Shown here in pieces: positions 5,889-23,428 of a stretch of 32,000 bases of DNA. Both the position numbers and the translations under genes were made by a program. How positions within the stretch are numbered: position 1 is the first letter of the stretch; each line of letters starts with the position of its first letter. The stretch is taken from contig JAWBON010000001.1 in assembly GCA_038826135.1 (NCBI GenBank), positions 1-32,000 of the forward strand, read 5' to 3'. The notes beneath the pieces were generated by a model. That model worked only from the letters and a program-made list of their open reading frames with translations, had not been told where the DNA came from and ran no database searches. This DNA is from Candidatus Odinarchaeota archaeon. Its GTDB lineage: Archaea > Asgardarchaeota > Odinarchaeia > Odinarchaeales > Odinarchaeaceae.

Positions 5889-5940
5889 CCTAGTTATCTA
5901 TTTGCTTTTTGTTAAATCAAGGATGAGTGGAGTGTAAAAT

Positions 5941-6198
5941 ATGTTAGATTTCATATTACACTTTACGATGATCGCGGCTATGATAATATTCGCCGTAATC
6001 GCTATCGAGCATAAAAATCTTATTTACTGCGCTGTTTCACTTGCCGCTATGAGTGTCTTCCTAGGCATAATATATTTTATTTTAAACGCGCCGTATGTGG
6101 CGGTCTTCCAGCTGGTTATATACGCTGGGGCTGTTACAGTTCTATTTCTAGCAGCTATAAGTCTTGTAACTAAGGCGAAGGGGGATGAAAAGGATTGA
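5941..6198 (+). CDS. NuoJ N-terminal half / MbhD-like membrane subunit
   Basis: Three hydrophobic helices. APYVAVFQLVIYAGAVTVLFL resembles the NuoJ TM3 motif (QxxxYAGA..VLF). Confidence 0.8.
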   Translation: MLDFILHFTMIAAMIIFAVIAIEHKNLIYCAVSLAAMSVFLGIIYFILNAPYVAVFQLVIYAGAVTVLFLAAISLVTKAKGDEKD

Positions 6199-6500
6199 AA
6201 CCATATGATATTGCTTTAAAAGGAGTAGCCGCCGCATTATCAATAATTTTTCTCCTATTTATTTTAATTCAGCTACCGACCATTATTCCATTCCAGTATT
6301 CACCCACAGGAACCTCTTTTGTAATAACTCCTTCAGACAGTCTTCTAGAGTCGATAAGCAATATTTTATGGAATCAAAGAGTGGTTGAAACATTCGGTCA
6401 AGTGATAGTTCTATTCGTAGCAGCAGCTGGAGCGGCTGCATTATTCAGATTAGAGAAACCGTCCTCTATTGAATCAGAGGCTGAGGAGGAGACGCAATAA
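6195..6500 (+). CDS. NuoJ C-terminal half / MbhE-MnhB-like membrane subunit
   Basis: TTG start overlaps the upstream TGA. LWNQRVVETFGQVIVLF resembles the MbhE/MnhB motif (R.xDT.GE..VL). Two TM helices. Confidence 0.7.
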   Translation: MKPYDIALKGVAAALSIIFLLFILIQLPTIIPFQYSPTGTSFVITPSDSLLESISNILWNQRVVETFGQVIVLFVAAAGAAALFRLEKPSSIESEAEEETQ

Positions 6501-6820
6501 TGCTTCCGTTAAATTTGCTATGGTGGTATTTAGGCGCTGCAGCAGCCCTGTACATTATAGGGCTTTACGCTCTCGTTTCAACGAGAAATATGATTAAGAC
6601 AGTTATCGCGATAGAGATACTGATAGATGGGGCTCATCTTAACTTTATAGCGTTCGCTGCAACTCCGACAGGGGGAGTTGATCCTATAGCTCACAGCATA
6701 GTGATAACAAGTATAATAATAGGCGGCTGTATAGCAGCTATCGCTCTCTCACTAGCTATAAACGCATACAAGCATTACGGAACTATAGACGTCAAGAAAC
6801 TGAGGAGATTAAGGGAGTAA
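6500..6820 (+). CDS. nuoK: NuoK/MnhC-family subunit
   Basis: IIGLYALVSTRNMIKTVIAIEIL with the conserved TM2 Glu. Three TM helices, YKHYGTIDV tail, and a start coupled to the upstream stop (TAATG). Confidence 0.85.
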   Translation: MLPLNLLWWYLGAAAALYIIGLYALVSTRNMIKTVIAIEILIDGAHLNFIAFAATPTGGVDPIAHSIVITSIIIGGCIAAIALSLAINAYKHYGTIDVKKLRRLRE

Positions 6821-6835
6821 ATAGGAGGGTATGGA

Positions 6836-8890
6836 ATGTTACCGTTCGCACCATGGTTATGGGTTATACCAATGATCGGGGCGGTTTTAATCCCGATTGT
6901 CAACAGGATAAGTGGAGCTGCCCGAGACTATTTCGCCATCGCAGTCGGTGGGTTAACTATGATTTTCGCCATCTCCATAATCCCGGATATCGTAAACGGT
7001 TATGACTGGCTTACAGGCGTTGCTTTAACAGACTTCCCAACCACAGGCGCCCACGGAGACTGGGTTATCCCTTGGATCTCAGGCTTCTTAAATATGGGTG
7101 TTTTAGTAGACCCGTTATCTGTTTTCATGGCTAACATCGCATCCGGGATAGGCTTCCTCATACTAGTCTACTCTCTAGGATACATGCATCATGAAACCGA
7201 TAAGATGAGATACTGGTTTTTCATGCTCTTCTTCATAGGTGGTATGGATCTCCTTGTATTAGCTGATAATCTTTTAATGACGTTCATAGGTTGGGAGATT
7301 GTAGGCTTATGCAGCTATGCGTTAATAGGATTCTGGCATAAGAAAACAGGGCCAAGCCCTGATCCCCGCTATAAGAATGAAGGCGAGTATAATGCAGCCT
7401 GCGGTATGAAAGCATTCATAACCACCAGGGTGGGGGATGTAGCGTTACTGATAGGTATAATCATAATATTCACGTTCGCCGGCACATTCAATTATTTAGA
7501 GCTGGCGGAAGGTGGTTTCGGCTGGGTTGTAGCATTAGCTAATGGGGGTCTATTACTCCCAGCCTTAATACTATTATTCGGCGGCCCTGTAGGGAAATCC
7601 GCTCAATTTCCATTGCATGTTTGGCTTCCTGAAGCTATGGCGGGTCCAACTACAGTCAGCGCTTTAATTCACGCAGCTGCCATGGTTAAAGCCGGGGTTT
7701 ATTTAGTGGCTAGAGTTCTACCAATAGTTCATGAAGCATACGTTGTTTTAGGATACACGGAGATTGTAACCTTCTTCCAGATCGTCTCATGGGTTGGAAT
7801 AGGGACGGCTTTCCTGGCGGCTACAATAGGTATTGTTAAAAAAGAGATAAAGCAGGTGCTAGCGTATTCTACAATAAGCCAGCTCGGATACATGTTCGCA
7901 GCTTTAGGTGTAGCTGGAACTGTGATCGAATCCGCGGCAGGTTACATAGCTGGTACATTCCATCTTGTAGCTCACGCTATATTTAAAGCACTACTCTTCT
8001 TAGCAGCTGGTAGCGTGTTGCACTCAACAAACACTAAGAGCATGTTCGAAATGGGTGGGATACGGAAGGATATGCCTTGGACGTACCGGACTATGCTAGT
8101 TGGAGTACTCTCCTTATCCGGGATACCTTTCATATTCGCTGGCGGTTGGAGTAAGGAAGCGATTTTAACAGCTGCTCTTCAAGCCGGTAACACGCTTTTA
8201 TTCGCTATAGCGGCTATAACAGCTGCTATAACAGTCTTTTACAGTTTCAGAATGCTCGGCATAACATTCTTCGGCAGTAAAAGCAGCTATTTACAGGAAA
8301 TGGAGAAGAAAGGTCATCACGTTCACGAATCCCCTAAAGTTATGATTATACCGTTAATAATACTAGCCGCGGGCACGGTGATAATAGGTATACTTTCAAT
8401 ACCGGACTTTTTCGGAGTTCCAGGATGGGAGGGAGCGTTCACCATATTCTTCGAGGAGTTGATAGGTCATCATACAACTACAGGTATACCGGCCACTAAC
8501 CCGCTTGTTCTTACCGCTCTCGGCACAAGTATCGCTATGATACTTATCGGATTCATTCCAGCATACTTACTATACATTAGAAGGGATGGGAAACAGGATA
8601 CACCCACATTTAAACCGATCTACACGTTTCTTATGAACAGATGGTATATTAACGCATTCTACTACGCGTTCTTCGTAGACGGCTTTATATGGGCTGCTAG
8701 AGGCGCATACAAGTACATAGAGGAGGCTGGTATAGATCGCTTCAACGATGTTCTAGTGAACGGCACTCGCGGATTCACTGAAAGATTCAGGAAGACTCAT
8801 ACAGGCATACTCAGCATTAACATGCTCGGCGTGCTTATAGGAATATTAGTTATGGCCGCGGCTGCTTTAGCCGTTCTACTGCTGATTTAG
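6836..8890 (+). CDS. nuoL: NuoL/MrpA-like antiporter subunit with C-terminal lateral helix
   Basis: VDPLS, GWEIVGLCSYALIGFW, TRVGD, GKSAQFPLHVWLPEAMAGPTTVSALIHAA, LAYSTISQLGYM, FKALLFL, SKEAIL and a long C-terminal extension (NRWYINAFY...THTG). Confidence 0.92.
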   Translation: MLPFAPWLWVIPMIGAVLIPIVNRISGAARDYFAIAVGGLTMIFAISIIPDIVNGYDWLTGVALTDFPTTGAHGDWVIPWISGFLNMGVLVDPLSVFMANIASGIGFLILVYSLGYMHHETDKMRYWFFMLFFIGGMDLLVLADNLLMTFIGWEIVGLCSYALIGFWHKKTGPSPDPRYKNEGEYNAACGMKAFITTRVGDVALLIGIIIIFTFAGTFNYLELAEGGFGWVVALANGGLLLPALILLFGGPVGKSAQFPLHVWLPEAMAGPTTVSALIHAAAMVKAGVYLVARVLPIVHEAYVVLGYTEIVTFFQIVSWVGIGTAFLAATIGIVKKEIKQVLAYSTISQLGYMFAALGVAGTVIESAAGYIAGTFHLVAHAIFKALLFLAAGSVLHSTNTKSMFEMGGIRKDMPWTYRTMLVGVLSLSGIPFIFAGGWSKEAILTAALQAGNTLLFAIAAITAAITVFYSFRMLGITFFGSKSSYLQEMEKKGHHVHESPKVMIIPLIILAAGTVIIGILSIPDFFGVPGWEGAFTIFFEELIGHHTTTGIPATNPLVLTALGTSIAMILIGFIPAYLLYIRRDGKQDTPTFKPIYTFLMNRWYINAFYYAFFVDGFIWAARGAYKYIEEAGIDRFNDVLVNGTRGFTERFRKTHTGILSINMLGVLIGILVMAAAALAVLLLI

Positions 8891-8903
8891 GAGGATATTG
8901 AAT

Positions 8904-10439
8904 ATGCAGTTACCGACACCCGCAAACTCAAGTTGGATGCTAATATCTCTGCTTATCTTAATTATCGGAGCCCCTGTAGTTTACTTATTCGGTAAACGCT
9001 TTGAAGAGAAGAGCGGCTGGCTTGCTACTGTAATCGCCGCAATAGCCACCGTCATCTTCGTAGTTATAGCAGGCTCTAACGTCTTAGCTGGAACACCAAT
9101 CTATGAATTATACACTTGGAACCCTGGCTTGCTAAGTCTGGATTTCGGATTATACGCTGACGGTTTAAGCACCCCCATAGCAGCTATAACTATGATATTA
9201 ACCACGCTGGCAACATTGTACAGTATATCCTATTTAAAAGAGGAGGGGAATAAGGGCTCCTACTTCGCTTTAATGCTTCTTTACATGACCGGTATGACCG
9301 GTGTAATCTTAGCCACGAATCTACTAGAATTCTTTGTTTTCTGGGAGCTTATGCTAATACCGTCATGGGCTATGATTGTACGCTGGGGAACTCCCGGTAA
9401 AGCTGCTAGAGCCGGCTTCAAATACTTCATGTTCACCCAGTTCGGTTCAATATGTATTCTTCTAGCGATAGGTGTAACATGGTTCATATCCTTCCAAGCA
9501 GGTTCACCAACCCTTAACATTTACGACCTGAATATAGTAGCCTCATCTTTAGCAACATTAGCTGTGCCCCTGTACCTTGTAGGCTTCTGTGTTAAAATGG
9601 CGATATTCCCAGTTCACACATGGCTGCCTGAAGCACACGGTGAGGCTCCAACACCTGTGTCCGCTATTCTTTCAGGTGTTATGATAGAGACAGCAGCCTA
9701 CGGTATCATCAGAATACCTGTAAATCTATTCGGTGTCACATTCACCGATGTCATATTGTTCACGGCGGGTGGATGGGTTATTAACGTTTCAACCATTATT
9801 ATGATCTTCGCAGTGATCACAATGATATACGGCGGAGTTATGGCGATAGCTCAAACAGATACGAAAAGACTCTTCGCATACTCATCTGTCAGCCAGATGG
9901 GTTATATATTATTCGGTATCTCCGCTGTAACATCTCTGGGACTGGCGGGTGCATCACTTCACATAGTAACTCACGCATTCGGTAAAGGCACCCTCTTCAT
10001 GATCGCGGGTATATTAATGACACAGATCGGGCATTTGAAAGGGAGAGATATAACTAAATTAAGCGGCTTAGCCTCTAGGATGCCTATCACCGCAACAATT
10101 ACCTTAATAGCGGGTTTAAGCATCGCAGGCACACCACCGTTAGCAGGCTTCGCAAGCGAATGGCTTATATTCGCGGGAGCAGCTTCAGCCTACCACATTG
10201 TACTTTTAATATTCGCAGTTTCTTCAACAGCGGTCACAGCAGGCTACATACTATGGTTTATTAGAAGAGTATTCTTCGGACCACCGCGCGAAGATCTTTC
10301 AAATGTTAAAGAAGCCCCCTGGACTATGCTTGTTCCAGTAGCGCTTTTAGCATTAGGAGCCATATTGATCGGGATATTCCCGAATATAATTCTAGATTAT
10401 CTATTACCTATAGCGCAACACATAGCGCCTTTAACGTGA
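8904..10439 (+). CDS. nuoM: NuoM-like antiporter subunit
   Basis: DGLS, FWELMLIP, KMAIFPVHTWLPEAHGEAPT, AYSSVSQMG and PPLAGFASE (NuoM-type TM12 Glu). The ATG at 8904 follows GGAGG and is preferred over the TTG at 8898. Confidence 0.9.
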   Translation: MQLPTPANSSWMLISLLILIIGAPVVYLFGKRFEEKSGWLATVIAAIATVIFVVIAGSNVLAGTPIYELYTWNPGLLSLDFGLYADGLSTPIAAITMILTTLATLYSISYLKEEGNKGSYFALMLLYMTGMTGVILATNLLEFFVFWELMLIPSWAMIVRWGTPGKAARAGFKYFMFTQFGSICILLAIGVTWFISFQAGSPTLNIYDLNIVASSLATLAVPLYLVGFCVKMAIFPVHTWLPEAHGEAPTPVSAILSGVMIETAAYGIIRIPVNLFGVTFTDVILFTAGGWVINVSTIIMIFAVITMIYGGVMAIAQTDTKRLFAYSSVSQMGYILFGISAVTSLGLAGASLHIVTHAFGKGTLFMIAGILMTQIGHLKGRDITKLSGLASRMPITATITLIAGLSIAGTPPLAGFASEWLIFAGAASAYHIVLLIFAVSSTAVTAGYILWFIRRVFFGPPREDLSNVKEAPWTMLVPVALLALGAILIGIFPNIILDYLLPIAQHIAPLT

Positions 10440-10452
10440 GGTTGGATGAAAA

Positions 10453-12015
10453 ATGCAGCTTGATCTAACAGTTCTGGTTTGGCTACTACCAATAATCTTA
10501 CCGCTTATAGGAGCTGTCCTAACACCCTTAATCCACTTAATATTCAGTAAACTTAAAGCGGAGCGGGCCACTGACTTCTTCGCATCTTTTATACTCGTAC
10601 TCACCTTATGGTCTGTCATAAACGTTTATCTTATGTTAACAGATCCCGCTCTAACACCTACAGGTGTGAAAACGATACTTATATTCGGTTCACCTGCAAC
10701 AGGTGGAACAGGGTTCGAAATAGACATATTCAGCTGGTTTATGAGTGTTGTATTCGTATCAATAGGCTTCATAGTAACCATATACAGCATAAAATACATG
10801 GATAAAGATGACGGTCTGGAGAAATACTATATATTGCTTCAAACACTGGTAGCGGGAATGGTTGGAGTCGTTTACGCCGCTGACCTTTTCACATTATTCG
10901 TTTTCTGGGAGATAATGGCGTTATCAGGGTACAGTCTTGTTTCATTCAGGAAAAGTAAATGGGAGCCTATTGAAGCAGGCTATAAATATCTTATAATGAG
11001 CGCATTCGGCTCAACCCTTATACTCTTCTCGATCTCTTACCTATACGGTTTAACAGGCACACTTAACATAGCCTACTTAGGGTCAATCATCTCCACTGTG
11101 ACACCTAACCCGATGCTTTACATACTGTTAGGGATGTTGATATCAGGTTTCGGGGTTACAGCTTCAATCGTTCCATTCCACTCATGGCTTCCAGACGCTC
11201 ACCCCGCAGCCCCCAGCGGGATAAGCGCTATGCTCAGCGGGGTTGTTATAAAAACCGGTGTATACGCTATACTCAGAGTAGGCTCAGTTATATTCGCTCC
11301 GGGTATATGGAATTTCGGATTCATTGTAGCTGGATTCGCGGTTATAACCATGCTAGTCGGAAATATAATGGCTATGCTTCAAAACGATTTTAAGCGGCTT
11401 TTAGCATTCTCAAGCATAGCTAATATAGGATATATTATAGCAGGTCTTTCAATAGCATTCCTAGGTGTGGACGCATCCGCTCAAACCATAGCGTTAACAG
11501 GTAGTATATTCCACCTTCTCAACCACGCTATGGCTAAGGGGCTGCTCTTCCTTGTTTCCGGAGCCTTCCTATACCAGGTTCACACCAGGGATCTTAATCT
11601 TCTTAAAGGTATTGGGAGAAAGATGCCTATAACTGCTTTCTGTATGATTCTGGCGATTCTCTCGATTGCAGGTGTACCCCCGCTTCCCGGGTTCTTCAGC
11701 AAATTCATGATTATTTGGGGGCAGGCAGCAACCGGTAGTGTCGCAGGGATAGTTTTAGCAGCTTTAACATTGTTTAACAGTGCTCTCTCAATCGCATATT
11801 ATCTAAGAATCCTTGGCATAACAGTGTTCTCAGAGCCGTCTGAGAAAGTAGCTGAAGTTAAAGAATCTCCTATTGGAATACTTATCCCAATCGCTATACT
11901 CGCTGTAGCGATTTTCATATTAGGTGTTTGGAACACGCCTATACTCGACCTGATACAGCAGGTGGCGTATTCAGTTCTTAACCCTGCTTCATATATAGGG
12001 GCTGTTGTTCCATAG
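10453..12015 (+). CDS. nuoN: NuoN/MrpD-like antiporter subunit
   Basis: FWEIMAL, PFHSWLPDAHPAAP, IKTG, KRLLAFSSIANIGY, PPLPGFFSKF and AYYLR (NuoN-type C-terminal motif). Confidence 0.85.
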   Translation: MQLDLTVLVWLLPIILPLIGAVLTPLIHLIFSKLKAERATDFFASFILVLTLWSVINVYLMLTDPALTPTGVKTILIFGSPATGGTGFEIDIFSWFMSVVFVSIGFIVTIYSIKYMDKDDGLEKYYILLQTLVAGMVGVVYAADLFTLFVFWEIMALSGYSLVSFRKSKWEPIEAGYKYLIMSAFGSTLILFSISYLYGLTGTLNIAYLGSIISTVTPNPMLYILLGMLISGFGVTASIVPFHSWLPDAHPAAPSGISAMLSGVVIKTGVYAILRVGSVIFAPGIWNFGFIVAGFAVITMLVGNIMAMLQNDFKRLLAFSSIANIGYIIAGLSIAFLGVDASAQTIALTGSIFHLLNHAMAKGLLFLVSGAFLYQVHTRDLNLLKGIGRKMPITAFCMILAILSIAGVPPLPGFFSKFMIIWGQAATGSVAGIVLAALTLFNSALSIAYYLRILGITVFSEPSEKVAEVKESPIGILIPIAILAVAIFILGVWNTPILDLIQQVAYSVLNPASYIGAVVP

Positions 12016-12029
12016 CCCCTTTAACACTA

Positions 12030-12049
12030 TTTTTATTTTTTAAAAAAAA
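12030..12049. terminator. Bidirectional oligo-T/oligo-A terminator between convergent genes
   Basis: TTTTTATTTTTT followed directly by AAAAAAAA, between the stops at 12015 (+) and 12053 (-). Confidence 0.5.
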
Positions 12050-12052
12050 CGT

Positions 12053-12790
12053 TTAGAACGGGAATTCTCCTTTAATAACTGTACCGCTGTTTCCATCGAT
12101 AATAACGTTGAATAATTCATTTTTATATTTATAGACTATAAACCATAACGGTGCGTGTAAATAAACGGTTTGATTAAATTCAAACTCGTTTTTAAACTCA
12201 ATCAGCTTATCCACGCTGTTTAACACTAAAATTTTATGGTGCGCTTCAATCTCCTGTTGAGCTGTTCTTTTAGCTTCATCCTCATTTATCTCAGAGTTTA
12301 ATATTATAGAATTTCTAGGAATCTGGATAAAGTTGAAAACAACCCTTCTAGATAAAGGTATTTCAAACTCCTTGGTTGGGAAACTTGCTCCTCTTCTACC
12401 TAGAACCCGCCAATTATACTCTTTGATTATACTATCCTTTTTCCTGACCGGCGGTGTTAAACGTTCAAACACGCCTTCAAATAAAGTTGTTACTTTAACA
12501 GATAATATCCAGAACGGTAAGTATTTCAACTCTTTCAATTCTATTTTAGATTTTTTAACTAAATCCTTAGGTTTAATAAAACCCTCCTTCATCCAATCCA
12601 CCAGTACACTGTCTATCTTATCCTCAGAGTATTTTAAGGGCAACATTGAATGATCTAAGATAAACGGTTTACTTACATCTATCAACTGTGTTGAACCACA
12701 GTATTTACATGTAATAATAGCCTCGTTCTCAGCGTATTGAAGCGGCGCTCCACAGTTACTGCAATACACTCCCTTTGTTATCTGCGGCAT
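12053..12790 (-). CDS. Zn-ribbon-containing protein (CxxC-x17-CxxC plus conserved alpha/beta C-terminal domain)
   Basis: CSNCGAPL...CKYCGS, YLPFW and PLWFIVYKY...VIIDGNSGTVIKGEFP. Confidence 0.8.
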   Translation of the reverse strand: MPQITKGVYCSNCGAPLQYAENEAIITCKYCGSTQLIDVSKPFILDHSMLPLKYSEDKIDSVLVDWMKEGFIKPKDLVKKSKIELKELKYLPFWILSVKVTTLFEGVFERLTPPVRKKDSIIKEYNWRVLGRRGASFPTKEFEIPLSRRVVFNFIQIPRNSIILNSEINEDEAKRTAQQEIEAHHKILVLNSVDKLIEFKNEFEFNQTVYLHAPLWFIVYKYKNELFNVIIDGNSGTVIKGEFPF

Positions 12791-12875
12791 ACTACCTCAA
12801 CTTTTAAAAATTAAAGTGATTAATATTATTGGTGATTAAAATAACTATTAAACGGTTTCCCTAACCGGTGTTTAA

Positions 12876-13991
12876 ATGAATTTAACACAGTTAAAAACTA
12901 AAATCGGACAGTCACTGGCTCTAATAATAATATTAGAGTTAATATTTATTTTCGCAATAGTATACGTGATCGACTATTTCTTTGACGCTCTCTACTGGGT
13001 TCCAATATTTACAACAGGATATTATTTCCCAATAGCTAGAGATCTAATATGGGGTTTTATCGCTGTAGCTGTTTTTCTAATAGTTCAGTGGAGTTTAGGC
13101 TCATCATCAGTCGACTACGCTATGAGACCACGCCTCCTCCGTAAAGGTGAGAACCCCTGGATTGAGCAAACAGTTAACGAGTTATCTGAAAAATCAGGTA
13201 TTAAACCACCTAAAATAAAGATTGTAGACATGGACGCTCCTAACGCGTTTGTTTACGGTAGAACCGTAAACAGCTCCTCCCTGTGCTTGACAACAGGCCT
13301 CTTAAAATCGCTTAATAGGAATGAGATTAAAGCGGTTATAGGCCATGAACTAGGTCATTTAAGACATAAAGACGTTATAATAATGACATTAGCGGCAGGA
13401 GTTCCGCTGCTAGCTCTTCTAGTTTTAAGAGGCGGCTTATATACAGCCGCTACTATAGGCCGTACTTCCCGGCCAGGCGGCAAAGGGGATGGAGGCGCCT
13501 TCATAGTAATAATTTTAATAATCGTGGCTATTGCCTCCGCTATTTTCTTCCTATCACTGCTCGCCGTAAGAGGTCTCAGTAGGCTTAGAGAGCATTACGC
13601 GGACGCTCATGCTGCAATAGCCACAGCAGACCCGCACTCTATGCAAAGCGCTTTAGCTAAGATAACTTGGGGTCTTTCAATAGCACCTAAAAGTAATCAA
13701 AGCGATGCTATGAGAAACCTTTACATAGCCGACTCTTCTCAAGCCAAGTTGGAAGTAGCCTACGTGCGAGAGCATAAAGAAGAGTTTGATCTCGATAAAG
13801 ACGGTGTTCTGGATGAGCAGGAACTGGTAATCGCTATGGAAAAAGAGGCTAAAAAATCAAAACTTAGCGGGTTAAGCGCTAAATTCGCCACTCATCCACC
13901 AACATATAAGAGGATTCTCCTTCTGAAAAAAATAGAGAAAGAGCTTCAAACAATCCCCGCTGAGAAATTAAATATTAAAAAACTAATTTAA
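12876..13991 (+). CDS. htpX: HtpX-family (M48) membrane zinc metalloprotease with EF-hand-like insert
   Basis: N-terminal TMs, PNAFVYGR, AVIGHELGH (HExxH), SRLREHYAD and THPP. Confidence 0.93.
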   Translation: MNLTQLKTKIGQSLALIIILELIFIFAIVYVIDYFFDALYWVPIFTTGYYFPIARDLIWGFIAVAVFLIVQWSLGSSSVDYAMRPRLLRKGENPWIEQTVNELSEKSGIKPPKIKIVDMDAPNAFVYGRTVNSSSLCLTTGLLKSLNRNEIKAVIGHELGHLRHKDVIIMTLAAGVPLLALLVLRGGLYTAATIGRTSRPGGKGDGGAFIVIILIIVAIASAIFFLSLLAVRGLSRLREHYADAHAAIATADPHSMQSALAKITWGLSIAPKSNQSDAMRNLYIADSSQAKLEVAYVREHKEEFDLDKDGVLDEQELVIAMEKEAKKSKLSGLSAKFATHPPTYKRILLLKKIEKELQTIPAEKLNIKKLI

Positions 13992-14626
13992 ACATTAGAC
14001 GCTATTCTTTCCAGAAACACGGCTTGCTGATTAATTAAACCCATTATTGTCAGTATCTCTCTACCGTTCTCCGTTAACCCGTAGTTGTTACCAACCTTCT
14101 CAACTAAATTCTGCTCGACTAAAGCGTTTATATGATGGTATAGAGAGCCCCCTTTCTTACCTGAAAGCTGTTGAATCTCCTTCGCAGATCTATCCCGCTC
14201 AGCCAGCGAACACAATATTCTTATCCTGTCAACGTTTGAAAGAGCGGAAAGATAGTTCGCTATTCTCTCAAAGGATCTATCGCTATCCCCGATTATATCC
14301 TCAGTGTCAAACTCCATAACCATACTATGCATTGGAATAGCTTGATTTTGGAAAAATCTAACAGATGATAAGAATACAATCCCCTTCTGTATCCTCCTAG
14401 AAGCGGAAACACTTTCAAAAATAATTCTATCAAGCGCATCCTGTTTAACAGACTCCTTATCTTTTATAATCGGTGTTAGACTATCTTTCTCTGAAGAAGG
14501 CTGCTGCTCTATTAATCTAACAATTTTATCAAGCATTAACCTTAACCCTGTAACATCAATCTTAACACCTTCAAGGTTTGTTAACTGTTTTTTAAGTGTT
14601 TGAATCTCTTTTTCAACGCTTTCCAT
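13988..14626 (-). CDS. ArsR-like winged-helix transcription regulator with N-terminal extension
   Basis: C-terminal LSALSNVDRIRILCSLAERDRSAKEIQQLSGKKGGSLYHHINALVEQNLV...YGLTENG. Confidence 0.85.
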   Translation of the reverse strand: MESVEKEIQTLKKQLTNLEGVKIDVTGLRLMLDKIVRLIEQQPSSEKDSLTPIIKDKESVKQDALDRIIFESVSASRRIQKGIVFLSSVRFFQNQAIPMHSMVMEFDTEDIIGDSDRSFERIANYLSALSNVDRIRILCSLAERDRSAKEIQQLSGKKGGSLYHHINALVEQNLVEKVGNNYGLTENGREILTIMGLINQQAVFLERIASNV

Positions 14627-14639
14627 ATCATCCCAACTG

Positions 14640-14695
14640 TAATGTTAATACATAAAAGTGTAGTATATTAACATTATTATGTAATTATGTTACAT
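14640..14695. promoter_or_regulatory. Two inverted repeats, candidate operator upstream of the wHTH gene
   Basis: taatgttaata-N15-tattaacatta (14640-14676) and atgtaa-N5-ttacat (14679-14695). Confidence 0.55.
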
Positions 14696-14874
14696 TTAAA
14701 ACTTTCTATTTAAAAAAAACTCCACCAAACTGTATTAAATAAGTGAAAAACCGACAAAAATCTTTTTTTCAACAAACCCCTCTACCAGTTAAATTAAAAA
14801 TATCACAGTAAGTTTTAAATTAAATAATTTCAAGTTATATATATCTTAGTGAACAGTTTTTTAGGTGAACGATT

Positions 14875-15384
14875 TTGAGGAAAAGCAACGGGCTGACCTC
14901 AGTTTTAGTTAAAATAAATGAGCGCTACAATGTTTTAAAAACCGCTTACAATCAGCGAATGGACGAGCTTCTGGAAATGGCTAGTAAGTTAAACTCTAAT
15001 ACAGGCGAGGAGAGTGTTAAATTAGCAGTTTTATTACAGCAGAAAATATACTCGTGCTCCGAGATCATAATACAGTTTCAAAGCTGGCTTGACGATATTC
15101 AAAGCTTGGAGATCGTTGACGGATTGGAGAAGAAATTAAAAATTTTATACGCTCACACCCGAAACGAATTCAGCACGCTTGAAGAGTTTCAAATTCTAGT
15201 AAAAGACTATCTAAAAACGCAGATAAGCGACACCCCTCTTATTAAAGATGTTCAGCAGACTTTGAAAAACATGATTAAACTATTAACCGACTCGAAACAT
15301 TACACCAATAAACAGATAGAGGATGTATATTCAATGTTATTCAATAAAAGGAAGCTGATTGACAGTCTCTCAGAGCATATTTGA
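14875..15384 (+). CDS. Hypothetical all-helical soluble protein
   Basis: 169-aa ORF with TTG start and a GGTGA RBS upstream. Heptad-like pattern but no recognised motif. Confidence 0.65.
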   Translation: MRKSNGLTSVLVKINERYNVLKTAYNQRMDELLEMASKLNSNTGEESVKLAVLLQQKIYSCSEIIIQFQSWLDDIQSLEIVDGLEKKLKILYAHTRNEFSTLEEFQILVKDYLKTQISDTPLIKDVQQTLKNMIKLLTDSKHYTNKQIEDVYSMLFNKRKLIDSLSEHI

Positions 15385-15542
15385 CAGTTATCTCTAATTT
15401 TTCTCTTTTTAAAAATCATATAGCGTTAACATTATATTAATATGGTTAAAATCGTATTGCAGCTGGTGGGGGTAAGTTTCCTGGGAACACCACGTCACGT
15501 TTACACGCAGGTCTCTGAATTTTACTGGATAAAGATTAAATA

Positions 15543-15550
15543 TTTAAATA
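15543..15550 (+). promoter_or_regulatory. TATA box of the ATPase I-C-K operon
   Basis: TTTAAATA about 57 nt upstream of the ATG at 15607. Confidence 0.45.
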
Positions 15551-15606
15551 TAACAATTGTAAAACGTTATGAAAGTTAACAATTATTCAGAGCGGATGGG
15601 GCTAAT

Positions 15607-17496
15607 ATGCTTAAACCAGCTAAGATGAGTAAATTTACAATTATCGCGTTAGATGAATACGCAGATGATTTAATCAGATTGCTGGGTAATCTAGGAATCG
15701 CTCAATTAGTGAATGTGAGTGAGAAGATCGCAGCATATAATGGTTTGATTCAACCAGTTGAGCCGGGCGACTACTATTACCGGGTTTCAGCCCTTTTATC
15801 CCAGGTAGAGGGGTTAATCGGCGACCTCGCTGTTCAGGAAATAGAGGATGTTAAAGAAAAGAAACGTCATCAAAAACTCAGCGAGGACGAGTTAACTAAA
15901 ATAGAGGATGAAGTTAGGAAAATTGAGGAAGAATATCTCACTCTTTCAAAAGAATATGACACGTTAAAAGAAAAAACAGATTTGACAATAGACGAAGAAA
16001 AAAGACTAGCCGAGCTTGAAGAGAATAAAGTTGATCTTAAAAAAAGAGTGAGTAAAAACCTACTTGTTCTCCGAGAGATTCTGCAAATAGAGCAACGTAT
16101 AGAAGAAGTTAAAGGAATGTCAGGTAAAACCGACCGCTCTTTTATGTTTGAAGGCTGGGTTGAAGAGCGAAAGGTTAAAACACTTCAAGAATCAGTGTTA
16201 AAGATTACAGGGAATAATTGTATTATTAAAATAGACGCACCTAAAAAAGAAGATAAACCGCCTGTGTTAATAGAGAACCCTAAATTAATTAAACCCGTTC
16301 AAATGCTTACAGTAGGGTTCTCAGTTCCATCATACAAGGAAATAGACCCGACGCTTCTAGCATCTATCACATTCCCCATATTCTTCGGGATAATGTTCGC
16401 CGATATAGGTCACGGGTTAATACTTTTAATCCCATCCCTTCTAGGATATATATCATTGAAAAAGGGTCACCCTAACTTTGAAGGGATGGTAGGCTGGTGG
16501 GTTAAAGGATCCCCTCTATTAGTCTCCTGCTCGGTGTCATCTATTTTCTTCGGTATATTATTCGGTGAAATGCTAGGCTTCTCCATAGTAGCTGAACCCT
16601 GGTATATAGCGTTAGCTCCGTATCTATTATTCTTAAGACAAGCGCTTGTAGGCTTATTCACATTCTTCGACTACGACGGCGGTGTTAAAATACTTACTGA
16701 CCCCAACTATGTTAACCCAGCTACAGGTATCGCTGAATACTCTCCGCTTCCAGGTGAATTGTGGGTTGATCCCGTAACCCACTTAGAACATTACAGCGGT
16801 CCTATACTTTTCAGCCCCTTCCACCACCCCTTCCTATTATTCGCGCTATCGATTATGATCGGAGTCATGCATCTTTTAGTGGGATTAATTCTCGGCGTTG
16901 TTAACAGTATTAAAAAAGGTAAAATATTGGAAGGAATAGTTGACAGAGGATTCTGGATATGGTTCTACATAGGTCTCGTATACTTAGCTTTTAATAGAGG
17001 TGTAACTTTCACAAACTGGTTCTCAACATTCAGTTTAACAGACGTGTCATTCTACTTATTCGCTATGCCTTTTGCCGGTCTCATATTCGGTAAACTAGTA
17101 GCTCACCGAAACATTATGGAAGGCTTCATAGGAACCTTCGAAGTTCTAGTATCCTCAATATCAAACACTATCTCGTATACTCGTATTCTCGCTTTAAACC
17201 AGGTTCACGCTGGATTCAGCAAGACATTTATAAACTTGGGGACATCCCCTGTTTACCACCCAATACTGCACGAGTATCTGCCAGCCTCCGACGCAGGCTT
17301 TTTAGTATTTCAACCGACACTTTACTATGTAATGTTTATTGTAACACAGATCGGTTTAGTAATGTTTCTGGAAGGATTACTAACATTCATAAACACTCTC
17401 AGGTTACATTGGGTTGAATGGTTCCTTAAATTCTATGAGGGAGGAGGCTCAGAGTTTAAGCCGTTTAAAATAAGTAGAGTATATACCTCAGGTTAG
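15607..17496 (+). CDS. atpI: A/V-type ATP synthase subunit I (a)
   Basis: MLKPAKMSK start, FEGWV, PSYKEIDPT, FFGIMFADIGHG, SNTISYTRILAL (essential Arg526) and LRLHWVEWFLKFYEGGG. Confidence 0.95.
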   Translation: MLKPAKMSKFTIIALDEYADDLIRLLGNLGIAQLVNVSEKIAAYNGLIQPVEPGDYYYRVSALLSQVEGLIGDLAVQEIEDVKEKKRHQKLSEDELTKIEDEVRKIEEEYLTLSKEYDTLKEKTDLTIDEEKRLAELEENKVDLKKRVSKNLLVLREILQIEQRIEEVKGMSGKTDRSFMFEGWVEERKVKTLQESVLKITGNNCIIKIDAPKKEDKPPVLIENPKLIKPVQMLTVGFSVPSYKEIDPTLLASITFPIFFGIMFADIGHGLILLIPSLLGYISLKKGHPNFEGMVGWWVKGSPLLVSCSVSSIFFGILFGEMLGFSIVAEPWYIALAPYLLFLRQALVGLFTFFDYDGGVKILTDPNYVNPATGIAEYSPLPGELWVDPVTHLEHYSGPILFSPFHHPFLLFALSIMIGVMHLLVGLILGVVNSIKKGKILEGIVDRGFWIWFYIGLVYLAFNRGVTFTNWFSTFSLTDVSFYLFAMPFAGLIFGKLVAHRNIMEGFIGTFEVLVSSISNTISYTRILALNQVHAGFSKTFINLGTSPVYHPILHEYLPASDAGFLVFQPTLYYVMFIVTQIGLVMFLEGLLTFINTLRLHWVEWFLKFYEGGGSEFKPFKISRVYTSG

Positions 17497-17509
17497 GAGT
17501 GTTATATTA

Positions 17510-17758
17510 TTGAGCGATAGCGATGAAAAAAGCGAGGGTACATCATCCTACGGTTCTATGTTTAAATATTTAGGGATAGGCTTCGACATAGTGATATTTG
17601 CAATAGTAGGATGGATAGTGGCTAAATCACTCGGCTGGAATGAAGTACTCGGCATAGGGGTAGGCGCGATCGTTGGAACCCTTATAATGTACATTCACCT
17701 CTTCTGGACTGTTAAACGCCTGTCGCAAACTAAGGAAAAGGGGGACAAAAGTGTTTAA
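17510..17758 (+). CDS. Small 2-TM protein, AtpZ/AtpI (ATPase gene 1)-like
   Basis: GGAG RBS and TTG start. Gly-rich TMs YLGIGFDIVIFAIVGWIV and LGIGVGAIVGTLIMY. Overlaps the next gene by 8 bp. Confidence 0.65.
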   Translation: MSDSDEKSEGTSSYGSMFKYLGIGFDIVIFAIVGWIVAKSLGWNEVLGIGVGAIVGTLIMYIHLFWTVKRLSQTKEKGDKSV

Positions 17759-18809
17759 CACGGTTAAACTATCTTTTCTGAACGCTAAGATAAGAGGGCT
17801 GAAATCTAAGCTTTTAAGCACTGAAGAATTTAATTCACTGGTAGGCAGCAAAACATTGCAAGCGATGATCAGAATACTAAGCTATACAGATTACTCCAGG
17901 TATATAACTAAACAGGCTAGCATGGAGCTTTCTGAACGGGATGTTGACAACTTGTTAAATAAAGCGTTCATCGACGCGATTGAAAGCATCAGAACCGTGT
18001 CCCCGCCTGAAATTAGATCTTTAATGACTGTTGTTAGATCAAAATATGAAGCAGCCGCTCTTAAAACCCTGCTTAGATTAAAGTACAGTGGTGAACCTCT
18101 TCAAAAAGCGTTGATGTACGTTATACCTATAGGCATCTTCTCCGAGAAAACAGTATCCGATCTGCTATCGAAAGGAACGTTGAAAGCTATGATTGAAGCC
18201 ATCCCGGATGAAGGTTACAGAGCGGTTTTAACCAGTGCGTGGCGGGATTTTGAACGTGAAAAAATTCTATTACCCCTCGAACTCTCACTCGACTATTATA
18301 CGTTCACTAGAATGTTGAATTCGGCCAGAAGGATCCTAACACCGGAAGATTATTTATCAATATATAATTATATGGGGCGTACGATAGACGTCACCAATAT
18401 AAATATAATTCTTCGAGGTAAAGTCTTTAACTTAAACCCTGTTGAAATACAGAAAATGATAGTTAGAGAAGGAAGATATATTAAAAAAGACAGTCTTTTA
18501 GCAGCTATTAGATCTAGAAATATTGAAGAAGCTATTAAGAATCTTATGATACCCCCCTTCGACTACTATCTATCTATAGGGTGGAAAAAATATCAGGCTA
18601 AAAAAGAGTTTTATTTAATTGAAAACATGCTGGAAAAAAGCATTTACGATAAAGCTAAACTTATATTAGGAACATATCCTTTCCAGATTCAGATGCCTCT
18701 TGCATTCGTAGATTTGAAATTCTATGAGGTGAATAGTATTAAAATCGTTCTAGTAGCTTTACTGGAGGGGATACCCCCGTCGACAATAAGAGAGTACCTA
18801 ATATACTAA
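17751..18809 (+). CDS. atpC: A/V-type ATP synthase subunit C (eukaryotic d homologue)
   Basis: FLNAKIRGLKSKLL, LSYTDY, LELSLDYY, IDVTNINIILRGK and LAFVDLKFYEVNSIK. Length 352 aa and operon context agree. Confidence 0.9.
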   Translation: MFNTVKLSFLNAKIRGLKSKLLSTEEFNSLVGSKTLQAMIRILSYTDYSRYITKQASMELSERDVDNLLNKAFIDAIESIRTVSPPEIRSLMTVVRSKYEAAALKTLLRLKYSGEPLQKALMYVIPIGIFSEKTVSDLLSKGTLKAMIEAIPDEGYRAVLTSAWRDFEREKILLPLELSLDYYTFTRMLNSARRILTPEDYLSIYNYMGRTIDVTNINIILRGKVFNLNPVEIQKMIVREGRYIKKDSLLAAIRSRNIEEAIKNLMIPPFDYYLSIGWKKYQAKKEFYLIENMLEKSIYDKAKLILGTYPFQIQMPLAFVDLKFYEVNSIKIVLVALLEGIPPSTIREYLIY

Positions 18810-18819
18810 TTGCAAAATA

Positions 18820-18827
18820 TTTAAATA
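18820..18827 (+). promoter_or_regulatory. Possible internal promoter for the c-ring gene
   Basis: CAAAA-TATTTAAATA lies in the 69-bp gap before atpK, followed by a GGAGGA RBS. Confidence 0.4.
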
Positions 18828-18878
18828 CACCATCAAGATAACAAGGCTTGTAAAACCGCTGAACCAGGAGGATATAAA

Positions 18879-19187
18879 GTGAAGAAAAGCACACTATTAG
18901 TTATTGTTACATTGATTATTATGATCTCTGTTGCTGTTCAAGCCTTATCGTTTGTAGCCGCCTTCCAGGAGGGGAATATAACAGACGCCTATAAGTTTTT
19001 GGGGGCTGGTCTTTCAATAGGTTTAGCTGGTTTAGGTGCAGGTATAGGGCTTGGAATAGCTGGAGCAGCCGCTATCGGCGCATCTACAGAGAAACCTGAG
19101 ATGCTTGGTAAAAGCATCATCTTCGTTGTTTTAACAGAGGCTATAGCAATATATGGTCTACTGATATCATTCCTACTGCTAGCTTAA
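18879..19187 (+). CDS. atpK: A/V-type ATP synthase subunit K (c), single hairpin with N-terminal leader
   Basis: GAGLSIGLAGLGAGIGLG glycine zipper, EKPE loop and LTEAIAIYGL (Glu87). Confidence 0.95.
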   Translation: MKKSTLLVIVTLIIMISVAVQALSFVAAFQEGNITDAYKFLGAGLSIGLAGLGAGIGLGIAGAAAIGASTEKPEMLGKSIIFVVLTEAIAIYGLLISFLLLA

Positions 19188-19248
19188 CAAATATACTATA
19201 CTATTTTTGAAACCCTATTTTTAATTATTATTTCAAAATATTTTTACG

Positions 19249-20340
19249 GTGAAATTGTTGAAGGTTATAATTCCCGCAGGCGGGTTTGGAACCAGGCTTA
19301 GACCTTTAACATATACTCGGCCTAAGTCTCTGCTACCAATATATAATACTACAATACTGGGTTTCATACTAGACCATTTATCAAATTTTAAGGTCATTGA
19401 TGAAGTTATTATAGCAGCTAATAAAGAATTCCGCCAGATTGAATCAGTCTTCAAAAACAGCTACAAGGGGTTGAAAATAAAATATGTATGGGAAGAGAAG
19501 CGGATGGGGGGTGTTGCCTGTATTAAAAACGCTTCTAAAAATATTGAGGAAGATTTCTTAGTGTTTCTGGGGGATAATCTATCAGACGTTAACATAACAG
19601 AGTTTACAGCGTTTCATAAGAGAAAAGAATCAGACGCATCAATCATGCTTGTAAAATCAAAAACACCATGGTTGTACGGTGTTCCTGTCATTGATGAAAA
19701 CGATTACATAACATCTCTAATAGAGAAGCCTAAAAATATAGAGTGCAAGGAGGCTTATATTGCGACTGGAATATACATTTTTAAAAAAGACGCTCTGGAA
19801 TCTGTTGATGAAAAACAGTTCATAGATCACACAGGTGAAATATTCCCGATAATACTAACAGCTGGTAAAAAGGTTTCAGGATTTAAAACATCTTTCTACT
19901 GGTCTGATATAGGCGACTTTAAAAACTACTTAGAAACTAACAGGTGGGTTTTAGAAAATAAGAGGGGGAAAATAAAACCTTCTTCAAATAATATAGACGG
20001 CCTCTCATACACAGCTTCACCCTCTATAGCGGATAACAGTTGCGTGGAATCCTCTATTATTCTCAAAGGGGCTGTTGTTAAAGGTAAATGTAGAATAATA
20101 AATAGTATGATATACGAGAATACGATTATAGGCGAAGAGGCCTCGATAATTAATTCAATAATAGCTGAAAACACCGTCGTCGAAGAGCAGGTTAGCGTTG
20201 AGAACAGTATTATAGGCGCTAACACTTTAATAAAAGCTAATTCAAACATTAAAGATGCTAAAATATGGCCTAGGATGATAATCGAAACAGGCGGAATCGT
20301 TAAAGGAACTATTCAACACGATTACCTGCCGTTGAAATAA
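19249..20340 (+). CDS. NDP-sugar synthase (sugar-phosphate nucleotidyltransferase with left-handed beta-helix)
   Basis: IPAGGFGTRLRPLTYTRPKSLLPI, FLGDN, IEKP, WSDIG and C-terminal hexapeptide repeats. Confidence 0.92.
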   Translation: MKLLKVIIPAGGFGTRLRPLTYTRPKSLLPIYNTTILGFILDHLSNFKVIDEVIIAANKEFRQIESVFKNSYKGLKIKYVWEEKRMGGVACIKNASKNIEEDFLVFLGDNLSDVNITEFTAFHKRKESDASIMLVKSKTPWLYGVPVIDENDYITSLIEKPKNIECKEAYIATGIYIFKKDALESVDEKQFIDHTGEIFPIILTAGKKVSGFKTSFYWSDIGDFKNYLETNRWVLENKRGKIKPSSNNIDGLSYTASPSIADNSCVESSIILKGAVVKGKCRIINSMIYENTIIGEEASIINSIIAENTVVEEQVSVENSIIGANTLIKANSNIKDAKIWPRMIIETGGIVKGTIQHDYLPLK

Positions 20341-20341
20341 A

Positions 20342-21118
20342 CTAGCATGTTTTCCGCGCGAAGCTCATATACCCGGTATGACCGATCATCAGAGTAGCCG
20401 GTCTAGTTTTATCCTCTCTGACCATAATCTCTCTCAATATGCACTCAAAAGTTTTAATGTCTTTAAACCCTATTTTCTCCATAACATAAACCGCTTTCTG
20501 AGTCTGCTCTATTGTCGGTGAATAATTCACTAATATACCGCTTCCTCTAAGAGATGAATAAGCCTTCTCCACAACAAGCCATGGGGTAGCTAAATCCAGA
20601 ATGATAATATCCAAATCCTTCTCCATAAAACCTTCACAGACATCATGTTTTTTAAGTTCAACATAGTCGGAGAGCCCGTATTCGCTGAGATTTCTACCCG
20701 CCGCTTTAAGAGACTCATCTCTAATATCATACCCGTATATTTTACCATGAGGTTTAACAGCGTTAGCTAAATAAACAGTTAAGCCGCCGCTCCCGACACC
20801 CGCCTCAGCAACTCGTTGGCCGTCCCCTATCCCTGTATACGCTAATATTATACCCACGTCTTTAGGGTAAATTATCTGAGTAGACCGCTCCATTTTTAAA
20901 ACCAGATCACTTAAAACAGGTTTAAAAACCGTGTACTCGACACCCAGACTCGTATACCCTTTACACCCATACTCTTTTCCGATTAAATCATCAAATTTTA
21001 TGATACCTCTATGCGTGTGATGTTCTTTACCCTTCTGGACTTTAACAAGCCATCTCTTCTTATAATCTATTGCAAGCAGTACACGATCCCCTTCACCAAT
21101 AATATTCATCAACACCAC
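20342..21118 (-). CDS. trmI: tRNA (adenine57/58-N1)-methyltransferase
   Basis: HTHRG, RSTQIIYPKD, EAGVGSGGL, DLATPW, YSPTIEQ and RPATLMIGHTGY. Confidence 0.95.
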   Translation of the reverse strand: MVLMNIIGEGDRVLLAIDYKKRWLVKVQKGKEHHTHRGIIKFDDLIGKEYGCKGYTSLGVEYTVFKPVLSDLVLKMERSTQIIYPKDVGIILAYTGIGDGQRVAEAGVGSGGLTVYLANAVKPHGKIYGYDIRDESLKAAGRNLSEYGLSDYVELKKHDVCEGFMEKDLDIIILDLATPWLVVEKAYSSLRGSGILVNYSPTIEQTQKAVYVMEKIGFKDIKTFECILREIMVREDKTRPATLMIGHTGYMSFARKTC

Positions 21119-21910: not shown

Positions 21911-23428
21911 ATGAACCTCAACGTTAAGATATGTTTCGATGAATCTCATAATGAGGGAGGGCGGCTTAACACAACCTACACTGGTTTAAAAGAGCTGCTT
22001 GAAAAAAACGGGTTTGAATGCGTGTCGTTAACAGATTTCCCCATAACATACGATAAACTAAAAAAATATAATACCCTTGTTATAGCCGGCCCCGACATGT
22101 CTAAGTTCAGACCATCTGAAATAAATGATATTTTAAAATATGTGAGTGATGGCGGGAGTCTTGTTTTAATGTCGGATGCTGGCGGTGACAGCGGGCATAT
22201 GACTAACTTAAACAGAATAGCTCAAACTATAGCCTTCCAGTTTAACGCTGACCAAGTAATCGACCAGAAGTCAAACTTAGGTGTTGAAACCGTGCCGATA
22301 CTTGACCAGATAACGCCTCATGAAATAATGCGTGGTGTAGCCTCCGTCTCCTACAGAGCCGGTTGCAGTATAACAGTTACAGGGGAAGCCCTGATACTTC
22401 TTAAATCCAACCAGACTTCAAACCCTCCTAACGCGCCTATAATAGTGTTAGCTAAACACGGTGAAGGTAAAGTTTTAGGTATTGGAACATACGAGATATT
22501 CAGAGATAGACTACTAGGCGGAATAAACGCGAAATACCATAGCAATCTAGCTTTAAACATATTTCAATACATGTCAGTGTATGGGGAACCGGCTGAGGGG
22601 GAGGGAATAGTAATCGAGGAAATCCATGAGGAGACCAGTCCGTTAATAAAGGAATTAGCTCAAATCAAAGATGCTACGCAAATATCCGGCGAGTCTAAAA
22701 CTCAAGCTGAGAGTAGAATAGAGGAGGCTAAAATAACACCGTTAAAAGAGTCTCCGAAACGTAGAGAGCAGGAAAACCTGCTAAGAGAGTTATCTGAAAA
22801 CGTCACCAGTGTTTCAACCATGATAAAAGAACAGGTTTACAATCTATCAGATCTTCATGAAAAAATAACTGTGGCTGAAAGAGAGCTTGAAAACATAAAC
22901 TCAACTATTAAAAACTACCGTTTAAACGAACTTTATGATAACATAAATAATATTAATACAGCTTTTCAGAAAATCGGTGAGGACACAAACACCCTGCTGA
23001 AAGATATGGATAATTTGAAAAAGCATCTTGAAACTATTAAGTCAACTCAAGATGAATATAATACAACCGCAGCCGAGTTATCTAAAAACATTAAATCCGC
23101 TATAAACACTAGCAGCGATAAATTAATTAAAAACATTGAAGCCGGGTTTAACCGTGTGGGTAAAATAAGTCAAGAGCTGAAAAATCTAATTCCAGAAACT
23201 GTGAGAAACATTTTTCAAACCTATCAATCAGAGTTTCTAAACACCCAGGTGAAGTTGATTGAAGGATTAGAGGAGCGGTTAACTGAAAAAATAAATAAAC
23301 TTTTAACAGAGTTTTCAAAGCTGAAACCAGTAGAGGAGACGGGTAAAACCCCGGTTTCTAAAGAAGCTGAAGCGGCTGCTGAGAAACCTAAGGTTAAGAA
23401 AGCGGTGAAAAAACGAAGCCCTAGTTAA
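21911..23428 (+). CDS. GIFT/DUF4350-like (IFT52-like) domain fused to a long coiled coil
   Basis: ICFDESHNE, LVIAGP...F...EI..I.KYV..GGSL and GKVLGIG in residues ~6-222. Heptad-rich residues ~285-470. No TM or signal peptide. Confidence 0.8.
   Translation: MNLNVKICFDESHNEGGRLNTTYTGLKELLEKNGFECVSLTDFPITYDKLKKYNTLVIAGPDMSKFRPSEINDILKYVSDGGSLVLMSDAGGDSGHMTNLNRIAQTIAFQFNADQVIDQKSNLGVETVPILDQITPHEIMRGVASVSYRAGCSITVTGEALILLKSNQTSNPPNAPIIVLAKHGEGKVLGIGTYEIFRDRLLGGINAKYHSNLALNIFQYMSVYGEPAEGEGIVIEEIHEETSPLIKELAQIKDATQISGESKTQAESRIEEAKITPLKESPKRREQENLLRELSENVTSVSTMIKEQVYNLSDLHEKITVAERELENINSTIKNYRLNELYDNINNINTAFQKIGEDTNTLLKDMDNLKKHLETIKSTQDEYNTTAAELSKNIKSAINTSSDKLIKNIEAGFNRVGKISQELKNLIPETVRNIFQTYQSEFLNTQVKLIEGLEERLTEKINKLLTEFSKLKPVEETGKTPVSKEAEAAAEKPKVKKAVKKRSPS

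Follow-up and report, generated by a model that had tools for sequence, protein, structure and literature searches.

The 32,000-nucleotide stretch of DNA analysed here (the window) is the first 32 kb of contig C1 (54,811 bp) in a metagenome-assembled genome (MAG; 1.26 Mb, 105 contigs, 93% complete) of a Candidatus Odinarchaeota archaeon, hereafter Odinarchaeum. Between positions 15607 and 19187 it carries four co-directional genes in the order I / x82 / C / K: three encode membrane-sector subunits of an A-type ATP synthase, and x82 encodes a small protein of 82 amino acids (aa). We consider it probable that the cluster is the membrane-sector (Ao) operon (I, an AtpZ/AtpI-like gene, C and K) of the single A-type ATP synthase of this organism, and that its distance from the soluble-sector (A1) genes is an extreme form of the fragmentation typical of Asgard archaea and their Thermoproteota relatives, with no special design along the Vo/V1 division of V-type ATPases (V-ATPases).

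The cluster and the remaining subunit genes

The gene atpI (15607..17496, plus strand) encodes subunit I (a), which acts as stator and ion channel in Ao. It was matched to PF01496 in the Pfam scan (E 2e-43, 148.8 bits, cut-off 30.7) and, below the curated cut-off, to the NCBIfam model for V-type ATP synthase subunit I. The protein is an a/I family member with a C-terminal membrane domain and is 85% identical across three genomes of the genus. Its motif SYTRILALNQVHAG holds the expected arginine (an arginine-containing SYTRILAL motif is visible in the translation), for which we presume a functional role. The next gene, x82 (17510..17758, plus strand), encodes a glycine-zipper protein with two transmembrane (TM) helices and is assigned below to the AtpZ/AtpI-like proteins by a chain of profiles and by its position between atpI and atpC.

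Subunit C (d), the rotor socket that joins the central stalk to the c-ring, is encoded by atpC (17751..18809, plus strand), a single-copy gene with a GTG start. The match to PF01992 covers the whole model (1-339 of 339; E 2e-57, 195.7 bits, cut-off 29) and places the protein in the AC39 family of the membrane sector. The proteolipid, subunit K (c), is encoded by atpK (18879..19187, plus strand), passes PF00137 (E 6e-20, 71.6 bits, cut-off 24) and scores 81 bits on the NCBIfam subunit K model, below the cut-off of 101. It consists of an N-terminal helix and one hairpin, carries the membrane carboxylate as a glutamate within LTEAIAIYG, and is 96-98% identical within the genus.

An earlier note on this DNA had described these genes as closely spaced or overlapping, and the measured distances bear this out: 13 nucleotides (nt) separate I from x82, the stop of x82 and the start of C overlap by 8 nt, and the C-K spacer is 69 nt long. 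Shine-Dalgarno-like sequences (GGAG, GGGGG and GGAGG) stand ahead of the starts of x82, C and K, respectively, the last of them 8 nt ahead of the GTG start of K. The cluster lies well inside C1, 15.6 kb from one contig end and 35.6 kb from the other. The note had also stated that no other ATPase gene lies nearby; this holds for the entire 54,811-bp contig, where no A, B, D, E, F or H gene was found by tblastn of all the subunits and by family searches, both run on the whole MAG.

The same searches located all nine subunits, one copy each, at four loci, so that the genes whose location the note had asked for (A, B, D, E, F and H) are all present in the genome. H-E-F and the beginning of A occupy the end of contig C66, the remainder of A the end of C76; B stands alone in the middle of C5, and D alone on C7. 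For comparison, a closed genome of the same genus was used (G002; one contig, 1,418,269 bp). The four loci recur in it at distances of 86 to 430 kb from one another. D is found at 349 kb, B at 598 kb and E-F-A at 684-686 kb; a 169-aa open reading frame (ORF) together with I, x82, C and K occupies 1,115-1,119 kb, with neighbours matching those of the window. Neither genome has H-I-K-E-C-F-A-B-D as a contiguous operon. The A gene, divided between two contig ends in the MAG, is intact in G002.

The break in A falls exactly at the P-loop (GGFGTGKTV), with the pieces at the end of C66 (~5576-6301) and at the end of C76 (4006-5457, minus strand). The two pieces share a ~130-residue overlap, with only 54% identity there, and both C66 and C76 show synteny with the one A locus present in the closed relative. 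Long A frames (~1070-1170 aa) are found in the Asgard genomes G001, G004, G009, G017, G029 and G034 and probably contain an intein at the P-loop site. The sequences of the MAG pieces suggest that mixed alleles or strains, possibly with and without an intein, broke the assembly.

Gene order in Asgard and other archaea

For 20 Asgard genomes, which represent 13 GTDB families, the surroundings of subunit C (~10 kb each side) were annotated by tblastn and by iterated profiles seeded on the Odinarchaeum proteins. Neither A nor B was found near C in any of the 20 loci, an absence that can be trusted because A and B are too conserved to be missed. I, C and K lie near one another in almost all of these loci, the exception being family f7 (I not within 10 kb), and f8 has the I-x82-C-K order of Odinarchaeum. 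The peripheral-stalk pair H-E stands beside the membrane genes in f6, f7, f12, f13, f15, f17 and f19. In many Asgard families A and B are themselves 48-136 kb apart or on separate contigs, and in others they are adjacent or a few kb apart. Around A/B in f4, f6, f8, f12 and f18, only F and/or H lie near A-B (in f8, D follows ~1.6 kb past B on the opposite strand), and the f14 locus holds A and B without other subunit genes. The f14 genomes (G019:C32, G038:C157) have B 5' of A on the same strand, which reverses the usual A-B order, and no other subunit gene in the stretch fetched.

Outside Asgard archaea, 80 loci anchored on subunit B were compared; a 12-sequence alignment of subunit C held no stretch conserved enough for a search. 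The order H-I-K-E-C-F-A-B-D, which the note had given as the common archaeal one, was seen in dozens of loci and is intact in the B-anchored loci of Methanobacteria, Thermococci, most Thermoplasmata and one Undinarchaeote. Bathyarchaeia B loci hold only A-B-D, apart from one with H-E-F-A-B ... D. In all five genomes reached via Bathyarchaeia-type B loci, C and K lie away from A-B-D: three have H-E-C-K (with I adjacent in one of these), one has I, x82-like ORFs, C and K, and the fifth, labelled only Thermoproteota but possibly an Asgard genome, carries H-E and K-C along with a strong x82 match. Three Thermoplasmata loci (L113, L116, L117) show B-D without A or any other subunit 5' (7.6-10 kb fetched for L113 and L117, 1.5 kb for L116); sporadic operon breaks are thus found in Euryarchaeota as well.

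Published descriptions agree. In Crenarchaeota the subunit genes of the A-type enzyme are spread through the genome (PMC3189178), and the A-ATPases of Promethearchaeota and Thermoproteota have been reported to differ in operon structure, d and F being encoded elsewhere (bioRxiv 10.64898/2026.10.01.756066). Thermoproteus tenax, likewise on the TACK/Asgard side, encodes one A-type enzyme in single genes and small clusters; it differs from Odinarchaeum in having two atpI copies and other groupings, and no operon of the form I / AtpZ-like / C / K has been described for it in that source (PMC3189178).

The separation of the membrane genes is thus lineage-typical, part of a broad operon decay in Asgard and TACK archaea. 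The earlier note had implied that the split is special and had said that its being common across unrelated archaea would refute this. The comparison gave that outcome: the same kind of split recurs in Asgard archaea and in 5/5 Bathyarchaeia-type genomes, and is reported for Crenarchaeota (PMC3189178). That the set is exactly a/d/c appears as a genus-level remnant, because most other Asgard families keep H-E with the membrane genes. The canonical atp operon holds the same nine families in single copy; in Odinarchaeum its order is lost, with a break between C and F and further breaks leading to four loci. In the simplest history, the canonical order would first have broken between C and F, and more breaks would have come later; Odinarchaeum would be the most fragmented state, because with the move of H-E to F-A exactly I, x82, C and K would have remained.

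Such genomes also bear on annotation. Pipelines that expect ATPase genes to lie together, as under a published clustering rule (PMC11738941), risk scoring them as being without a complete enzyme.

The small protein x82 and the promoter-like elements

The protein between I and C has two hydrophobic helices, as the earlier note had it in calling it a 2-TM protein; more exactly, it is probably a diverged member of the AtpZ/AtpI family, an assignment reached transitively. On PF03899 (ATP-synt_I) x82 scores 19.7 bits (cut-off 25.1), and it has no match to PF09527 at E values up to 10. Its relatives reach PF09527 at E ~0.01 and the NCBIfam model 'Cg1360 ATP-synthase-associated' at E 1e-3. An iterated x82 profile finds small 2-TM ORFs near or directly 5' of C in f2, f3, f6, f7, f8, f12, f13, f15, f18 and f19. 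The assignment is made because profile-linked ORFs beside C in f7 and f18 pass PF09527 (29.5, 32.7 and 33.0 bits, cut-off 26.6), because the nearest ESM Atlas clusters, taken as a lead only, are AtpZ/AtpI families (score 0.81-0.83), and because such a gene lies beside C in many Asgard families, encoding a small two-helix membrane protein inside a membrane-sector gene block. On the same Pfam model, the f19 ORF scores 25.9 bits and distant profile matches up to 24.6 bits. The orthologue in Odinarchaeum yellowstonii (OdinLCB4_006140) carries the incomplete UniRef name 'AtpZ/At...', read as AtpZ/AtpI family.

Among 5.8 billion proteins, 48 relatives were found, of which those with names are nearly all labelled Asgard (Odin, Thor, Hermod, Hod, Prometh), with one Thermoprotei; among 1.84 billion representatives there were only 52 matches. 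The strict profile, which represents the Odin-type branch, finds members in f1, f2, f6, f12 and f15. No x82-like gene was found in the canonical euryarchaeal operons sampled, a difference from Odinarchaeum. A sequence search of the PDB with the x82 profile returned PetL as the sole match, which was judged to be due to chance. Two proteins of 378-382 aa (P0083 and P0089; one cluster member is labelled Verstraetearchaeota) have an x82-like 2-TM hairpin fused to a ~310-aa helical domain for which no family match was found. A relation of this remainder to subunit d was dropped (hhalign against the subunit-C alignment, probability 0.8%), and the AlphaFold2 model of the 378-aa fusion (mean predicted local distance difference test score 45) was too poor for a fold search.

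Bacterial AtpI/AtpZ proteins have been assigned roles in c-ring assembly or Mg2+ uptake from experiments in bacteria (cited in PMC4154653 and PMC10598746). By analogy, x82 may help c-ring assembly or cation handling, and is a candidate for such a role in Ao. That the four genes of the cluster are so tightly coupled would serve co-insertion and assembly of the sector. An AtpZ/AtpI-like x82 does fit a unit for the assembly of the membrane sector. In bacteria, the F-type loci of alpha-proteobacteria and nitrospirae encode Fo apart from F1, in a conserved block atpI(PF09527)-sI-a-c-b (Koumandou and Kossida 2014, PMC4154653), and the authors conclude that the system tolerates splits between any subunits (PMC4154653). 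These loci likewise set a membrane-sector block with an AtpI/AtpZ-type small protein apart from the soluble sector. They differ in being of the bacterial F-type, whereas the Odinarchaeum enzyme is of the A/V-type, with a d-type subunit in the block that has no F-type counterpart and with the soluble sector in three further loci.

A wider proposal can be put forward only tentatively, and we think it more likely wrong than right: that x82 is a dedicated assembly factor or tenth subunit of Ao in the A-type ATP synthases of Asgard and some TACK archaea, a functional counterpart of bacterial UncI and eukaryotic Vma21, and that I/x82/C/K beside a Nuo/Mrp-like module (described below) are a membrane-assembly unit linked since early Asgard evolution while the soluble-sector genes dispersed. 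In either case, x82 is a testable candidate for an assembly factor of the A/V-type membrane sector.

Signals around the cluster were compared in four aligned Odinarchaeum genomes. Upstream of I, a promoter-like block of ~50 nt (15526..15575, plus strand) is nearly invariant while its flanks have diverged; it contains the 12-mer AAAGATTAAATA and the TATA-like 13-mer AAATATTTAAATA (15538-15550, plus strand; palindromic core TATTTAAATA). A second copy of AAATATTTAAATA lies in the C-K spacer (18815..18827, plus strand), inside a block that is also conserved in the four genomes, and the two sites, ahead of I and ahead of K, are the only occurrences in the 1.26-Mb MAG. They can be read as putative B recognition element (BRE)/TATA elements, one for the operon and one internal before K, and the internal element could raise the output of K to match the many-copy c-ring. 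Archaeal transcription terminates at oligo-T, and the T-rich stretch 3' of K (19200..19225, plus strand; two runs of five T) is likely the end of the transcription unit. I-x82-C-K is probably transcribed from the element before I, with the second copy before K, and the unit probably ends at the T-runs. The conserved 13-mer before I and K is a concrete prediction for transcript mapping. The gene after K (19249-20340) encodes an unrelated nucleoside triphosphate (NTP) transferase and has its own TATA-like stretch. A scan for sigma-70 promoters and hairpin terminators was set aside as not applicable to archaea.

The 12-mer AAAGATTAAATA occurs 5' of the I operon (window 15531-15542) and 5' of the lone B gene (C5:29218-29229). 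Both sites are kept in the closed relative G002 (L139:7407), and the MAG holds 3 copies against ~1.1 expected. The 12-mer probably forms the core of a strong promoter of generic type; it could conceivably be a control element common to the I operon and B. An 11-mer, AAGATTAAATA, is common to the regions 5' of I, B and D in the MAG (7 genomic copies against 3.7 expected) and is kept in the closed relative before I and B, not before D. It was rejected as evidence for a regulon, the motif having been derived from the same sites, and was treated as a generic strong BRE/TATA sequence.

On the 5' side of the promoter-like block lies the 169-aa helical ORF (14875..15384, plus strand), a doubtful part of the unit. 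It has no family match above cut-off in Pfam or NCBIfam, keeps its position in three genomes of the genus (63-64% identity), and was matched by its profile in none of the other loci searched (100 loci). A weak ATP-synt_D match (E 0.02) was put down to noise from coiled coils; the genuine H subunit is encoded on C66.

For the Odinarchaeia, the literature searched held no statement on the ATPase gene layout and no explicit description of the four-locus map, of an AtpZ/AtpI-like gene in an Ao cluster or of the twin promoter-like element. The new points are modest: an AtpZ/AtpI-like gene within the Ao clusters of Asgard archaea, the twin element, and the map of four loci in a closed Odinarchaeum genome.

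Alternative readings and the gene neighbourhood

Several observations weigh against the reading of the cluster as an ordinary Ao operon with an AtpZ/AtpI-like member. That I, C and K stay together while the A1 genes disperse could reflect selection for a membrane module, and there are exceptions to the split, f5 and f9 having all their subunits together at a single locus, though in non-canonical orders. As to x82, it is itself below every Pfam cut-off, so that its assignment consists of a chain of profiles plus position; the strict profile is positive in only 25/81 Asgard genomes; and most members of the family score best on generic glycine-zipper models, which raises a concern about composition.

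The single-locus orders are K-C-H-F-E-A-B-D-I in f9 (L144, L145) and F-H-E-A-B-D-C facing I-K in f5 (L147), and one genome (G028; L153, f18) has a second, canonical I-K-E-C-F-A-B-D operon. These f5 and f9 enzymes and the second operon of G028 may be other ATPase types or lateral acquisitions.

Of all known organisms, Asgard archaea are most closely related to eukaryotes, and any hint of how the halves of the V-ATPase came to be made separately draws attention. The earlier note had proposed that the separation of the a/d/c set could allow independent Vo assembly or regulation, as in eukaryotes. In its full form, this reading would have the set separated for independent assembly or regulation of the membrane sector, foreshadowing the eukaryotic V-ATPase with its separate Vo assembly and reversible V1-Vo dissociation. 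We regard this as improbable. The cluster has its own conserved promoter-like element and a candidate assembly factor, and I, C and K are linked in almost all Asgard loci while the A1 genes wander. The eukaryotic Vo (a, d, c-ring; Vma21) is built from the same three core families, which in Odinarchaeum are encoded with a small 2-TM hairpin protein. However, A1 forms no unit, and the division is not a clean Vo/V1 split because the A1/V1 genes, too, lie dispersed at three loci (H-E-F-A, B and D). Most Asgard families have the stalk genes H-E with the membrane genes, and neither the Bathyarchaeia-type genomes, which show the same split, nor the dispersed Crenarchaeota are eukaryote-like. No Vma21-like (PF09446) or subunit-e-like (PF05493) match was found among 43 x82-family members at E up to 0.1, and none by the PDB sequence search; x82 groups with bacterial AtpZ/AtpI instead, and Vo assembly factors of the Vma21 or subunit e/f type were not detected in these searches. 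The dispersal of genes in eukaryotes, moreover, is not operon-related, unlike that in Odinarchaeum. An assembly pathway cannot be shown by gene order alone, and the gene layout by itself gives no hint of separately made V-ATPase halves; it belongs to the Asgard/TACK operon decay, which F-type enzymes show as well. Of the a/d/c claim, then, the separate unit stands; that it is special or eukaryote-like does not, with A1 as H-E-F-A, B and D and no counterpart module.

A further reading, which we hold to be very unlikely, is that the Ao genes and a module of antiporter-like genes make up a membrane bioenergetic island, in which co-regulation or co-insertion of ion-pumping and ion-consuming membrane parts is at work and the linkage itself, rather than the distance from A1, is selected. 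The module, identified with Pfam and NCBIfam, comprises five membrane-protein genes that are not ATPase genes (6195..12015, plus strand) and ends 3.6 kb 5' of the ATPase cluster. It encodes a 101-aa ORF (weak MrpB-like match), a NuoK/MrpC-like protein, a NuoL-like protein and two NuoM/N/MrpD-like proteins. In seven Asgard families (f1, f2, f8, f12, f13, f15, f19), homologues of this NuoK/L/M/N- or Mrp-like module occur no more than 10 kb from subunit C. According to passages of a preprint on Atabeyarchaeia and Freyarchaeia, genes for Nuo-like hydrogenase subunits form one syntenic block with those for ATP synthase in these archaea (bioRxiv 10.1101/2023.11.21.568159). In the block as those passages present it, ATPase membrane and stalk genes stand beside NuoK/L/M/N-like genes, as in Odinarchaeum and in five Asgard families other than those two; the window differs in having no hydrogenase catalytic genes adjacent, and A/B separation and an AtpZ-like gene are not discussed in those passages. 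Against the island, four unrelated genes on both strands (12053-15384) intervene between module and cluster, so that the two are not one operon, and the linkage could be plain inherited synteny.

Finally, a contig break, mis-binning or chimeric assembly, to which the 105 contigs and the discordant overlap of the broken A gene might have pointed, is excluded as the cause of the separation, because the cluster, mid-contig on 54.8 kb in the MAG, recurs with identical arrangement and neighbours in the closed 1.418-Mb chromosome of the same genus and in two further genomes of the genus; the artefact that the note had allowed for is thereby refuted.

Membrane-sector genes of unusual form were seen in other archaea. 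In f3, each genome has three subunit-C matches, and in one locus (L047 of G007, 4744-15415) paralogous membrane-sector clusters, I-C-K-K and I-K-C, lie side by side with a third I. The proteolipid gene of the Asgard genome G016 (f12; L041:1869-5315) is a 1,149-aa frame with ~15 ion-binding-type glutamate motifs, and a relative (L040:6522-9768) has two adjacent proteolipid frames of ~540 aa each. Proteolipid frames of ~970 aa occur in Methanobacteriota and Undinarchaeota MAGs (L124:2539-5442, L125:3181-6114). From their sequences, these very long frames look like fused multi-hairpin c subunits.

Among the other neighbours of the cluster, a TrmI/GCD14-type tRNA methyltransferase gene (20342-21118, minus strand) adjoins it in the window and lies within 10 kb of C in f6, f13 and f15; this linkage points to an old conserved neighbourhood. 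Genes for Arf/Ras-family small GTPases and an IFT52-type GIFT-domain protein, which are typical 'eukaryote-like' Asgard genes, are also found near the ATPase loci (window 5150-5740, minus strand, and 21911-23428; C5:32656-33219).

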